From a virus, in IMG/VR virus record IMGVR_UViG_3300042940_001100, positions 1 to 64,000 of that record: a stretch of 64,000 nt of DNA; one strand, written 5' to 3'. Under the pieces are notes generated by a model that had not been told where the DNA came from, did not search any database, and worked only from the letters and a program-made list of their open reading frames with translations. Each line of letters starts with the position of its first letter. The stretch's first letter is position 1. Made by a program: the position numbers and the translations under genes. Shown here in pieces: positions 24,015 to 56,864 of the stretch.

Positions 24015-24332
24015 ATGGCAAAAAAACTAGAAAAAGCCCAAGCGGGTAAGATAGTAAAAGCAGTAGCCAAGGGTGCTAAAGGCGCATATAAAAATTATAT
24101 GAGGAATGTAGACCAGCCTAGAACTAAAGCTTACGTAGCTGCATTAGGTGTTGGAGCAGGTGCTGGTTATGCTGCACTAACACCAACCATCCGGAAAGTT
24201 GAAGCTAGAGAAAAAGCTTTAGTACCAATTAAAGAAAAATATGGAAACAATGTAGCAGATTCTACAAGAGCTAAGATGCGAAGGATGGACGATAAAAAAA
24301 CAGGTGGAGCAACTAAATCTAAAAAGAAATAA
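24015..24332 (+). CDS. small Lys-rich protein with KAQxG and KKxGG motifs
   Basis: MAKKLEKAQAGKIV...AALGVGAGAG...KKTGGATKSKKK. Confidence 0.75.
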   Translation: MAKKLEKAQAGKIVKAVAKGAKGAYKNYMRNVDQPRTKAYVAALGVGAGAGYAALTPTIRKVEAREKALVPIKEKYGNNVADSTRAKMRRMDDKKTGGATKSKKK

Positions 24333-24334
24333 TT

Positions 24335-24535
24335 ATGAAAGATATCAAAGCTAAAGTGGTTACTAAACCTACAGGTAAAACAGGTGGTACTAATGGTACT
24401 GCTAAAGTACAAAAAAGTATTAAAGCTAAACCTTCTGGTAAAGTTAACACTCCACCAAAAGGTGCAGTTCCTGCTGCTAAGTATGGTACTATGATGAAAA
24501 AAGGCGGTATGGTTAAATCTAAAAAATCTTGTTAA
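24335..24535 (+). CDS. small Lys-rich protein
   Basis: Ends MMKKGGMVKSKKSC. Confidence 0.7.
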   Translation: MKDIKAKVVTKPTGKTGGTNGTAKVQKSIKAKPSGKVNTPPKGAVPAAKYGTMMKKGGMVKSKKSC

Positions 24536-54739: not shown

Positions 54740-54743
54740 TAAC

Positions 54744-56864
54744 ATGGCAAGAGTTAGAATAACCAAAACACCTAAAGCTCTATCAGGGCTTGAAGTAAAG
54801 ATGAAGGATATGAAATCAGGATTGTATGGTACTAATGGTAACCGTCAATTTAGTTTACCTAATCAAATACAAAGCAGTAGATTCTCAGAACCTCTTACTG
54901 AGGTGAGAAATACTTTACAACCTGTAGCTAGAGAAAGTGCTAACCTTGAAGCTGAGAGAGGTGAAACTGCAATAGTTAATATGGGAGGTATGCCAGCACA
55001 TTTTAAGATTGGTGGCAAGAGACATTCAGAAGGTGGTACTCCATTGAATCTTCCTGATAACTCTTTTATCTATAGTGATACTGCTAAGATGAAGATTAAA
55101 GATCTTATTATCCAAGCTCAGTTTGGTATGGTACCAAAAAAGTCTGGATACACTCCGGCTGAGATCTCTAAGAAATATGATATCAATAAATTCAGAAAAG
55201 TTCTAGCTGATAAAAACTCAGAACCAGTTGAGAGAAAGACTGCAGAGATGATGATCTCTAACTACAACTTAAAATTAGCTAAGCTAGCTTTAATACAAGA
55301 ATCAATGAAAGGATTCCCTCAAGGAATTCCTCTTGTAGCTATGCCTTATATTATAGAGAATGAAATGGATGCCTCTCAATTCTTACCAGATCAAGCTCAA
55401 GAACAATTAGAAGGAGCTGAACAACCAGATGCTGATACCGGTGAAGCTAGATATGGTGCTAATGTTATCTCTACATGGGACACACATAGATATGGTGGTA
55501 TACCTAAAGCTCAGTTTGGTGTTAATACAACTATGGACTCTGTTCCAAGATTTGATCCAGCATTGATAGCTCAACAAGTTGCTGCAGAAGAACTTGCAGC
55601 TAAACAAAAAGGAACAATGACAACAGGGTCAGCTCCTAGAACAGTAACAGGTACTCCTTCATACAATGTACCTTTACAAATAAATGATGGAGAGTATCAA
55701 CAAACAGAACCTGATATGTTTACAAAAGCTTTACAAGGTGTTGGTGCTATTATGGAAGCTCCTCAAAGAGCTATGATGTATGCTGGTACAAGTATGTTTG
55801 GAGATGAAAACTATGAAATGACTAATCCAAAAACTGGTAAAAAAGAATGGATAGATAAAGATATTGTTGATATAAGAATGAAACAAGGATATACACCTAC
55901 AGGTAAAAAGAAAACAGGATTTTATGAAATGCCATCTGAAACATTAGAAAGAGGATATCCTGATGCTTCTCCTGCTCTTAAGTTTGCATCTGATGTTTTT
56001 GGTGATCCTTTGCTTCCTGTAACAGCATGGAAAACTGCAGGAAGATTAGCTACTAAACAAATATCTAAACCTTTAACACAAGCTATTTATCAATCTAAAG
56101 GAACACTAAGCAAAACAGAAGCTATTAAAAATTTAGGTCCTAAACTATCACCAAGAAAAAAAGAAATAGCATCTAAGGTTTATGATAAGATAATGGATGC
56201 TTATAAAAAGAATCCATCAGTTGATGAAGCTAAACTATTAAAGATAGCGGCCCCTGCAGCTCATAATGCTGCAATAGCTCATGATGCTGAAAAAGCTTCA
56301 AAAGAAGCTGTTAGAATAGCTAGAGAAGCTGCAGAAGAAGTTGCTAGAAAAGCAGAGTATGCATATGTTTATGGTATTGAAAAAGCTAAAGAAATATATG
56401 ATAAAGCACATCCAGTAATCAAAAAAATTGCTAAAGGAACAAAAAAAGTTGCTGAAAAAGTTTATAATGCTGTTGATGATCCTTACTTAGGACCAACTTT
56501 TAAGATGGCTGGAAAAAATATAATCACTTCAGGAGGTAAAACTATATTTGCAGATGAAGCCAAGAAAGAAACTAAATACTATAAAAATTTAGCACAAGAA
56601 GAAAAAGAAAGAGCAAACAAAGCAGAACAAAAATCAGACAGTTTAAGTGTGCTTTTAGCTAAGAAACCTAAAGAATCTGAACAGAAATATGGTCCTATTA
56701 TTAGTAATAGTATTGGCCAACTTGGGCCAGGTTCTATAGCAAGAAAAAATTTAGCTACAGGAGAAGAAGAATGGTTTGATCAAAAAACTGGTAAACCATG
56801 GGCTGGTAATGTAGCTCCAGCAGATACCACAAGTAAAGTAACACCTGTTCAAGGAGATTGGTAA
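54744..56864 (+). CDS. virion cargo/ejection protein
   Basis: EAERGE...GKRHSEGG...FIYSD domain; RYGGIPKAQFG linker. Confidence 0.6.
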   Translation: MARVRITKTPKALSGLEVKMKDMKSGLYGTNGNRQFSLPNQIQSSRFSEPLTEVRNTLQPVARESANLEAERGETAIVNMGGMPAHFKIGGKRHSEGGTPLNLPDNSFIYSDTAKMKIKDLIIQAQFGMVPKKSGYTPAEISKKYDINKFRKVLADKNSEPVERKTAEMMISNYNLKLAKLALIQESMKGFPQGIPLVAMPYIIENEMDASQFLPDQAQEQLEGAEQPDADTGEARYGANVISTWDTHRYGGIPKAQFGVNTTMDSVPRFDPALIAQQVAAEELAAKQKGTMTTGSAPRTVTGTPSYNVPLQINDGEYQQTEPDMFTKALQGVGAIMEAPQRAMMYAGTSMFGDENYEMTNPKTGKKEWIDKDIVDIRMKQGYTPTGKKKTGFYEMPSETLERGYPDASPALKFASDVFGDPLLPVTAWKTAGRLATKQISKPLTQAIYQSKGTLSKTEAIKNLGPKLSPRKKEIASKVYDKIMDAYKKNPSVDEAKLLKIAAPAAHNAAIAHDAEKASKEAVRIAREAAEEVARKAEYAYVYGIEKAKEIYDKAHPVIKKIAKGTKKVAEKVYNAVDDPYLGPTFKMAGKNIITSGGKTIFADEAKKETKYYKNLAQEEKERANKAEQKSDSLSVLLAKKPKESEQKYGPIISNSIGQLGPGSIARKNLATGEEEWFDQKTGKPWAGNVAPADTTSKVTPVQGDW

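Follow-up and report, generated by a model that had tools for sequence, protein, structure and literature searches.

Among the Crassvirales are the most abundant human gut phages, and these viruses load and eject megadaltons of protein. The closest described system is the cargo of crAss001, for which virion structures are available (Bayfield et al. 2023; PDB 7QOG, 7QOI, 7QOJ, 7QOL and 8CKB). The available text of PMC10172136 indicates that the crAss001 counterparts of the giant proteins considered here are packaged, and that the cargo protein C1 (gp45) is string-like, with short segments that dock separately in the tail barrel (a helix, residues 214–245) and on the portal (a domain bound to the portal wing, residues 425–552). 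Here we analyse a 64,000-nucleotide stretch (hereafter the window) that comprises positions 1 to 64,000 of IMG/VR record IMGVR_UViG_3300042940_001100. It makes up the first 64 kb of one virus record of 122,320 bp (∼33% G+C) and derives from an uncultured crAss-like phage with a crAss-type virion module. It encodes a short peptide, built around Gly-Gly and Ala-Gln-x-Gly, that recurs in tiny Lys-rich proteins and at the module boundaries, or seams, of three large cargo-type proteins, which are probably injected. Genes are named below by their first nucleotide (Table 1).

Polyvalent proteins are large packaged or injected proteins in which unrelated domains recombine freely (Iyer, Burroughs, Anand, de Souza and Aravind 2017, PMC5512222). 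In the available part of that source, the zincin-like metallopeptidase is the commonest polyvalent domain and is invariably found fused to virion RNA polymerases of the N4 type; fusions to transglycosylase domains are also described. The same text proposes that zincins process polyvalent proteins, with P1 DdrB processed before packaging, and reports unprocessed packaging for the virion RNA polymerase of N4, a protein with a zincin-like domain. The cargo proteins studied here likewise combine many unrelated domains in variable order. They differ in their seams, as the available text of PMC5512222 describes no conserved junction peptide and has 0 occurrences of ‘crass’. Moreover, the seams here are limited to C1-type proteins and are absent from the RNA-polymerase giant that has the conserved zincin-like domain.

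The maturation proteases of adenovirus and African swine fever virus (ASFV), which belong to clan CE, cut after Gly-Gly; the adenovirus-type cut rule is (M/L/I)-x-G-G, and the adenovirus core proteins that are cut are basic. Our locus resembles these systems in that Gly-Gly preceded by a bulky residue occurs both at the termini of small basic proteins, which probably associate with DNA, and within larger precursors. It differs in that the bulky residue lies one position further from the GG, the P′ side is conserved and the proteins scanned here include no clan CE protease. In phage T4, the capsid-targeting sequence is N-terminal and is cleaved off at a Leu/Ile-x-Glu site by the prohead protease. 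As with the T4 internal proteins, which are small, basic, head-internal and variable, a short terminal peptide is shared across a variable gene array. In contrast to T4, the commonest tag here is C-terminal, the word is also repeated inside large proteins and no prohead protease is evident, there being no protease family match in the portal-to-capsid-gene region or in the rest of the virion module.

Among the papers listed in our literature searches, supplementary files excluded, none describes a Gly-Gly/AQxG junction motif in crAss-like phages. Added here are the homology link between the tiny proteins and cargo, a census of terminal tags, the unification of the KAQxG and xQxGG forms, a shuffle test of gp45 and an invariant zincin signature in a giant protein.

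A selected short peptide in small Lys-rich proteins and post-muzzle cargo

A first-pass annotation of the window, made by a model from the letters alone, had proposed that one peptide grammar joins tiny basic proteins with the module boundaries of giant cargo proteins. This proposal is borne out for the large proteins encoded behind the muzzle gene: all the words that it quoted are found in the translations of the genes named, and comparison with composition and with other proteins shows the motif concentrated in the small Lys-rich proteins and three large proteins only. The words are [K/M/Y/F/A/L]-[K/Q/A/E]-x-G-G (xxGG) and [K/M/P]-A-Q-x-G, and chance was controlled by 500 per-protein shuffles in three groups: the 13 small proteins (1,136 amino acids (aa)), the three large proteins (3,400 aa) and the other 131 proteins (34,216 aa). 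KAQxG occurs five times in the small proteins (0.05 expected) and five times in the large ones (0.13 expected), a count that 0/500 shuffles reached in either group, and once in all other proteins (0.38 expected). Likewise, [KMYFA][KQAE]xGG occurs 11 times in the small proteins (1.0 expected), 19 times in the large ones (2.1 expected) and five times elsewhere (7.1 expected). The sole outside KAQxG, RKAQYGK in ring protein 1 (40210), was rejected as chance; relatives read RRAQYAK at this place. Because the patterns were defined after the data were seen, these shuffle counts are descriptive, and replication was therefore sought in relatives.

Five complete or near-complete relatives from IMG/VR (G001–G005) were compared with the genome under study (G000). 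Their motif-rich proteins are the two or three open reading frames (ORFs) right after the muzzle homologue and the small basic ORFs after the capsid gene, and their giants have none. Pooled over the six genomes, xxGG occurs 88 times in 17,494 aa of cargo proteins (5.0 per 1,000 aa), 30 times in 6,459 aa of small basic ORFs (4.6 per 1,000 aa) and 44 times in the remaining 193,689 aa (0.23 per 1,000 aa). The broader suggestion of the first-pass annotation, a phage-wide address code, did not survive: the presumed packaged proteins of 934, 1997, 4307 and 1109 aa, which include the virion RNA polymerase, carry essentially none of the words. With the 437-aa protein counted in, each of these G000 proteins has no copy or one. 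As packaged-type giants lack it, the motif cannot be a general ticket into the capsid.

The N-terminal form in the 24015, 24791, 25355 and 25638 proteins reads M(A)KKLxKAQxGK(I/V)(I/V). These proteins had been said to start with KAQxG; the word is indeed present in all four, but begins at residue 6–10 and not at residue 1. As the 24537 (MKKLAKKQTGG) and 25027 (...KMQSGG) proteins start with the GG form, KAQxG and xxGG are variants of (K/A/M)-Q-x-G-(G/K). A complete seam has the form (bulky or Lys)-(K/Q/A)-x-G-G-(W/L)-L-(D/P)-K-(A/Y)-Q-x-G, with forms that include GGWLDKYQDGG, YGGLPKAQxG and MKKGGSTKSKKK, and a basic amphipathic helix (KIIKAxxKA...) often lies C-terminal of it. Free C-termini keep the first half of the seam, as ...GGWLDxxx-stop or (M/F/Y)KKGG-x-x-K-x-KKK-stop, and free N-termini keep the second half, as M...(L)PKAQxG. 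Conservation extends to both sides of the GG (WLD, LPKAQxG and the GG-x-x-K-x-KKK tails, 56 of them distinct), and Pro directly follows the GG in several copies. The codons of GGWLD and KAQxG differ synonymously between copies. This variation, together with the conserved junction described in the next section, indicates selection on the peptide and not on DNA or composition. The motif is thus a selected short linear peptide.

The general small-protein tag is the C-terminal (M/F/Y)-K-K-G-G-x-x-K-x-K-K-K. Across 42 related loci, a GG lies within the last 14 residues of 61 of the 174 distinct small basic ORFs versus 19 of the 160 non-basic ones, and the 56 distinct tails come from these related loci. 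An N-terminal tag, GG forms included, was found in 27/174 small basic ORFs. The KAQxG form occurs in just 4/174 and is nearly private to G000, so we regard the four KAQxG-headed paralogues as a local expansion. The array is highly variable among relatives whose major capsid proteins (MCPs) are at least 83% identical; the C-terminal tag is nevertheless kept.

Other members of the array have their own features. The first gene (23841–24011, 56 aa) encodes repeated P-T-(K/R)-Y-(T/K)-G-G-x-N-(K)-A-A-C units and occupies the same place in relatives. A 90-aa basic protein (26237–26509) belongs to the uncharacterised Pfam family DUF6321 (E 1e-24). An ESM Atlas look-up of the 24015 protein returned unnamed viral clusters only, below 0.9. 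By eye, the Gly-zipper cores of the 24015, 25355 and 25638 proteins resemble the Gly-rich hydrophobic stretch of crAss001 gp45, which the available text of PMC10172136 gives as a predicted membrane helix. A similar impression of likeness between the 25931 protein and gp45 was rejected (BLASTP E 1.9).

Seams between the modules of probable C1-type cargo

Two of the tiny proteins match internal pieces of cargo proteins. Residues 5–42 of the 24791 protein match residues 1778–1816 of the database homologue P0004, an internal cargo module head (phmmer E 3.6e-6; blastp E 8e-4), and residues 136–191 of the 26521 protein match residues 561–617 of P0073, an internal segment of a cargo protein of the 54744 family (phmmer E 3.4e-13; blastp E 4e-10). 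On the strength of these two homologies we take the tiny genes to be free-standing modules. A weak similarity (blastp E 0.035) also links residues 5–73 of the 24015 protein with the P0004 module head.

The 46634 gene lies directly downstream of the muzzle gene, beginning at its stop codon, and a cargo gene directly behind the muzzle is likewise present in G001–G005 and crAss001. Its product contains 17 GG runs, including four GGWLD, and ends ...FKTGGWLDNLH. Relatives G004 and G005, whose capsid genes are near-identical, share just residues 1–202, 541–576 and 895–970 of this protein, and the stretches 541–576 and 895–970 are motif-rich. In the seven database homologues of its zincin-like module, among them P0002–P0007, the module lies centrally or C-terminally, beside other modules in varying order. 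It is central in G000, C-terminal in P0003–P0005 and elsewhere in P0006/7, and another module is found at the C-terminus, in the middle or at the N-terminus in P0002/3/4. The junctions among these homologues keep ...GG(W)LD/(L)P(K/E)AQxG(K/A)II(K). Pfam gave only weak matches of the 46634 protein to SLT_2 (E 0.018) and Zn_peptidase (E 0.4); Pfam and PHROGs searches with the three motif-bearing proteins (46634, 51920 and 54744) assigned no family. The N-terminal ∼100 residues (46634–46940) form a small conserved domain, ...D-x-G-Q-(W/Y)-A-H-P-G-x-V-T-x-I...M-x-G-(V/I)...V-T-E-Y-P, that many cargo proteins of both crAss-like lineages, and of Leptolyngbya phage Lbo-JY46, carry at one terminus or the other.

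The 51920 protein, in which the first-pass annotation had counted about 15 copies, contains 17 GG runs, nine of which fit the strict xxGG pattern [KMYFAL][KQAE]xGG, and three xAQxG. Its acidic C-terminus ends NIEYLD. A C-terminal (I/V)E(Y/F)LD is common to the counterparts in G001–G004, with a faint version, ...LGYDFEVV-stop, in Lbo-JY46.

The 54744 protein gives the clearest view of a single seam. An AlphaFold model of residues 1–275 has a domain at residues 50–215 with pLDDT >90 and motif segments at residues 10–15 and 248–260 with pLDDT <50. Five positions at the post-domain junction (Y237, G238, A256, Q257 and G259) are invariant in 6/6 orthologues, and the flanks vary in length and sequence; beyond the domain, nothing but Y-G-G...A-Q-x-G is conserved. 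At E≤1e-5 the family numbers 2,548 members. Of the best 120, 106 contain the domain anchor, which in 77 of these 106 is followed by an xAQxG within 140 residues. The consensus of the family junction is (K/R)-(Y/F)-G-G-(G)-(L/I/M)-(P/L/M)-(K/R)-A-Q-x-G. The earlier statement that the motifs fall between domains therefore stands: the linker with pLDDT <50 lies beside a domain with pLDDT >90, and homology to relatives breaks at the motifs. Modules are shuffled, with fission and fusion, and the seams are retained.

The motif reaches well beyond close relatives. IMG/VR contains at least 593 relatives with 83–100% identity in the MCP. The exact coding pattern of GGWLDKYQ gave 39 matches in 38 stretches, and in 19 of the 39 the word forms the C-terminal end of a protein. 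Ten GGWLDKYQ contigs were tested and all have a crAss-type capsid gene, two at 83–84% and eight at 25–28% identity; the motif thus spans a second lineage whose capsid protein is only 25–28% identical. In Cellulophaga phage phi4:1, gp040 has a clear motif and is annotated in its record as found in virions by tandem mass spectrometry (MS/MS); we saw no small GG-tailed basic ORFs in phi4:1. Lbo-JY46 has faint versions of the words only, and no small basic array was seen there.

Cargo protein C1 of crAss001 (gp45) is likewise encoded directly after the muzzle gene. GG words are enriched only in gp45 (SAYGG, AEGGG, KAFGG, KDGG, NAFGGWLNTQGG and FAYGG), which also has a Lys-rich GG tail, ...KAKGGKVRTKKKK..., at its C-terminus. 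It has six strict copies in 842 aa, a count reached by 8/2,000 shuffles, and its 28 neighbours have two copies in 14,043 aa; its seams lie near residues 210, 265, 333, 374, 428, 435, 563 and 829. In contrast, gp45 has no significant sequence homology to the 46634, 51920 or 54744 proteins, and the crAss001 region examined has no small tagged-protein array. The available text of PMC10172136 does not mention the motif and has zero occurrences of cleav-, proteoly- or protease; that of PMC6235969 notes in section 7 only a ‘moderate discrepancy’ between predicted and observed sizes. A phmmer search with gp45 against the proteins of the six genomes found only G002 65398 (E 2e-13 over 66 residues) and nothing in G000, an hhalign comparison of the 54744 N-domain with gp45 residues 415–561 gave E 0.069, and a profile search of PDB sequences returned low-complexity noise only. 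No gp45 chain was among the Foldseek matches of the 54744 model; the library searched has one chain per sequence, which for gp45 may be the tail-barrel helix only.

A conserved seam of 10–12 residues that is easily mutated offers a direct way into experiments. Its positions predict the places at which C1-type proteins are jointed, docked or cut, and fast-evolving cargo proteins can be divided into modules with nothing but their sequence. The seam moreover connects the tiny polycationic gene array with the cargo system and could mark cargo genes in metagenomes. As the cargo proteins of the cultured phages crAss001 and Cellulophaga phi4:1 carry the motif, its role can be tested.

A possible joint, docking handle or cleavage site

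We favour, with a probability of roughly 40%, the reading that the seam is an uncut flexible joint or docking handle of string-like cargo and that the small Lys-rich proteins are single free modules. The motif would then label where autonomous modules meet or end in C1-type polyvalent cargo encoded behind the muzzle gene, and the tiny Lys-rich proteins would be free-standing single modules of this class. Seams would stay uncut in the virion and serve as flexible joints and docking handles, and the Lys-rich tails probably lie on DNA. Docking and the absence of cutting are the parts that we infer. In the deposited numbering of gp45, the portal-bound model, whose residue range the available text gives, starts at A425-F-G-G-W429, so that one motif copy lies in a continuous ordered chain; that copy should therefore be uncut in the virion. 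Both resolved gp45 segments are bracketed by seams (SAYGG at 209, AEGGG at 263, NAFGGWLNTQGG at 427–435 and FAYGG at 562). Moreover, natural C-termini stop 4–8 residues after the GG, so that clipping would remove almost nothing. A co-fold of the portal (residues 1–870, 6-row alignment) with residues 885–1005 of the 46634 protein, which hold two seams and a conserved mini-module, scored 0.00 against a mark of 0.32 in a run without controls and speaks neither for nor against binding.

Several points weigh against the favoured reading. That a gp45 copy is ordered is known from a residue range in the available text and not from coordinates, and concerns a single copy of a distant relative. C1 is seen as twelve chains both in the tail and in the capsid, which would be easier to explain if C1 were cut between those segments. 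Modules that work separately would be expected to be reordered freely and to exist as genes of their own. The phage has zincin-like domains that could cut, in the 46634 module and in the HExxH...EE domain of the 4307-aa giant, and zincin processing of polyvalent proteins is exactly what the available text of PMC5512222 proposes, with P1 DdrB processed. The small proteins are putative virion components, and phi4:1 has motif cargo found by MS/MS without such small proteins.

The main alternative is that the seams are proteolytic, which we consider possible though doubtful. A virion-borne zincin-like metallopeptidase, that of the giant or of the cargo or both, would cut the cargo strings into separate effectors in the head or after injection, and would remove leader and tail peptides from the small proteins. 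The first-pass annotation saw no dedicated protease in the window, consistent with our ∼45 Pfam queries (whole proteins and fragments from the virion module, the giants and the small proteins; ∼60 small early-region proteins lay outside them, and distant folds could escape them), which found neither a clan CE nor another dedicated maturation protease; PHROGs likewise gave no dedicated maturation protease among the scanned virion-module proteins. The annotation offered the zincin module as one candidate. An HELGH is present in the 46634 protein, but zincins (HELGH and others) occur in the cargo proteins of only 4/6 related genomes, and we rejected the cargo zincin as a universal protease. The 4307-aa virion RNA-polymerase protein (genome positions 67066–79989, outside the window) has an HExxH at residue 694, within a signature, Y-H-E-A-W-H-(A/G)-F-(S/T)-Q...L-E-E-(F/Y)-(I/L)-A-E-(D/E)-F-R, that is invariant in 42/42 aligned homologues. 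Judged by this signature, the zincin-like HExxH...EE domain of the giant is a better candidate protease than the cargo zincin. A phmmer search of the region against PDB found nothing and Pfam nothing relevant. Its AlphaFold model reaches intermediate confidence (mean pLDDT 59.5; 73–91 in the core), and fold searches with it gave a best E of 0.22 in Foldseek and a best Z of 4.4 in VIA-align, where rows of anthrax lethal factor stand among ties at Z 3.6–4.2. Modules that are freely reordered, fused and split at seams would suit cutting, as would the P1 DdrB precedent and the two compartments that C1 segments occupy in the available description of crAss001. The Gly-Gly cutting of basic core proteins in adenovirus and of ASFV proteins is a further precedent. 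Against cutting, seams are absent from the very giant that has the conserved zincin-like domain (0 xxGG and 0 AQxG in 4,307 aa). Strong P′-side conservation, C-terminal stubs of 4–8 residues and Pro right after the GG in several copies would be unusual for plain cut sites, one seam is intact in the crAss001 virion model, and the N4 virion RNA polymerase is packaged unprocessed (PMC5512222, available part). Cutting only after injection would fit the intact seam in the crAss001 virion. A polyprotein strategy of this kind, in which strings are stowed uncut, threaded through the tail and cut at the seams on arrival by the zincin-like peptidase borne on the giant RNA-polymerase protein, seems to us somewhat more doubtful still. 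If true, it would release lytic, membrane-inserting and DNA-coating modules, with the tiny Lys-rich proteins clipped at both ends, and would be a phage counterpart of adenovirus/ASFV Gly-Gly maturation with a different protease class.

A general address for capsid loading, the second option of the first-pass annotation, in the manner of the T4 capsid-targeting sequence or of encapsulin cargo-loading peptides, would account for a motif found at the ends of proteins and in disordered stretches, and for a C-terminal tag common to many unrelated small proteins. We consider it unlikely, as the motif is missing from the RNA-polymerase giants and from the 934-aa and 437-aa proteins, all expected to be packaged, and reaches up to 17 copies per protein, far above what an address needs. 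The KKSGG near the C-terminus of the putative scaffold (19110), from which the small-protein tag might have been read as a mimic of a coat-binding end, is not conserved in five scaffold orthologues, and that idea was dropped. Slightly less probable again is a linker with no partner, that is, a flexible soluble spacer that tolerates module recombination, with the Lys tails as generic DNA-binding polycations. The low-complexity, disordered context, the coincidence of homology breakpoints with seams, the AT-rich genome (33% G+C) and the polycationic tails would all be in keeping with such a spacer. Against it, W, L, D/P, K, A, Q and G are position-specific across lineages with capsids 25–28% identical, and conservation reaches crAss001, with synonymous codon variation. 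Position specificity combined with synonymous codons is more than a spacer needs.

Virion gene order and neighbouring features

The muzzle gene lies 5′ of the motif-bearing genes in 6/6 genomes (G000–G005). Behind it, the 1755-, 939- and 706-aa proteins are followed by proteins of 437, 934, 1997, 4307 and 1109 aa, a run that continues past the window. This order matches crAss001 gp43 (annotated as a tail tubular protein), gp44, gp45 (C1), gp46 (C2) and the RNA-polymerase proteins, and the R1, R2, muzzle, portal, HK97-type MCP and giant RNA-polymerase proteins together follow the crAss001 order of a Crassvirales virion module. In tblastn searches with the portal, crAss-like phages match at 20–32% identity, and the nearest cultured phages are Lbo-JY46 (32%, epsilon-group crAss) and Cellulophaga phages phi4:1 and phi17:2. 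A blastn search of 24000–31900 against phages gave short unrelated matches only, and a tblastn search of the 1755-aa (46634) protein against annotated phage DNA gave zero matches.

Table 1. Features of the window discussed in the text.
Feature	Coordinates	Strand	Size	Remarks
Large terminase	14022–16226			
Portal	16233–19001	+		phrog_6547
Acidic scaffold-like protein	19110–20366	+		putative, from composition and position
MCP, HK97-type	20409–22046	+		phrog_11589
Array of small basic genes	23841–27311	+	13 genes	tightly packed; between capsid and ring/fibre genes; members without motif: 25931, 26088, 26237 (Pfam DUF6321), 27126
Small Lys-rich protein	24015–24332	+	105 aa	N-terminal MAKKLEKAQAGKIV; Gly-zipper hydrophobic core; C-terminal KKTGG-ATKSKKK
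Small Lys-rich protein	24335–24535	+	66 aa	GKTGG near N-terminus; C-terminal MKKGG-MVKSKKSC; tail shared with relatives
Small Lys-rich protein	24537–24788	+	83 aa	N-terminal MKKLAKKQTGG; internal KMKSGG
Small Lys-rich protein	24791–25024	+	77 aa	MAKKLAKAQFGKII...; C-terminal KKMGG-ATKTKKKK
Small Lys-rich protein	25027–25353	+	108 aa	KMQSGG; MAKGG; C-terminal KKMGG-PTKKK
Small Lys-rich protein	25355–25636	+	93 aa	start ATG 25355; MKKLAKAQMGKIV; Gly-zipper core; C-terminal KKMGG-SIKKK
Small Lys-rich protein	25638–25928	+	96 aa	start ATG 25638; ...LPKAQYGKVI; Gly-zipper core; C-terminal KKVGG-AIKSKKK
Basic protein	26521–27126	+	201 aa	KAQDG at residue 26; C-terminal KKSGG-QTKSKKKK
Tail ring protein R2	39534–40205	+		Pfam CrAss_Ring_2, E 5e-19
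Tail ring protein R1	40210–41238	+		Pfam CrAss_Ring_1, E 1e-8
Muzzle-type virion protein	41238–46634	+	1798 aa	phrog_37948, E 1e-48; synteny with crAss001 gp44–gp46
Cargo-type polyvalent protein	46634–51901	+	1755 aa	first gene after muzzle; SLT-like region; HELGH zincin-like module
Junction YQDGGDLPKAQLG	49520–49558	+		residues 963–975 of 46634 protein; also in P0002 (...EEGGDLPEAQLG)
Junction EKDGGWLDKAQLGKII	50624–50671	+		residues 1331–1346 of 46634 protein
Cargo-type protein	51920–54739	+	939 aa	low-complexity, motif-saturated
Cargo-type protein	54744–56864	+	706 aa	disordered N-terminus with PKALSG; folded domain, residues 50–215; disordered linker
Junction RYGGIPKAQFG	55488–55520	+		residues 249–259 of 54744 protein

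Several further observations concern the rest of the genome. The MCP ends ...NPITGGSF-stop, with a GG four residues before the end. Identification of the 22801 protein as a homologue of the crAss001 auxiliary capsid protein gp36 was not supported (BLASTP E 0.54, nothing in PDB). A 166-aa protein (28018–28518) belongs to the uncharacterised Pfam family DUF5856 (E 7e-16). Outside the window, a protein encoded on the minus strand at genome positions 93583–94833, in the early/replication region, has a DUF2201_N putative metallopeptidase domain and a VWA-like domain (E 7e-18 and 2e-19), with an HExxH at about residues 72–79, and is conserved in 6/6 related genomes. A 181-aa protein (8198–8743) contains a ...HRAN...WSAGCQV... 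pattern, which we take to recall an L,D-transpeptidase/carboxypeptidase active-site motif, and has no Pfam match even at E≤1; crAss001 gp30 carries an annotation of the L,D-transpeptidase/carboxypeptidase type. Finally, two proteins encoded between the small-gene array and the ring genes (31070–35359, 1429 aa, and 38111–38827, 238 aa) are extremely Cys-rich and Lys-poor, with internal repeats and, in the 1429-aa protein, a K+R content of 3%; both are probably fibres.

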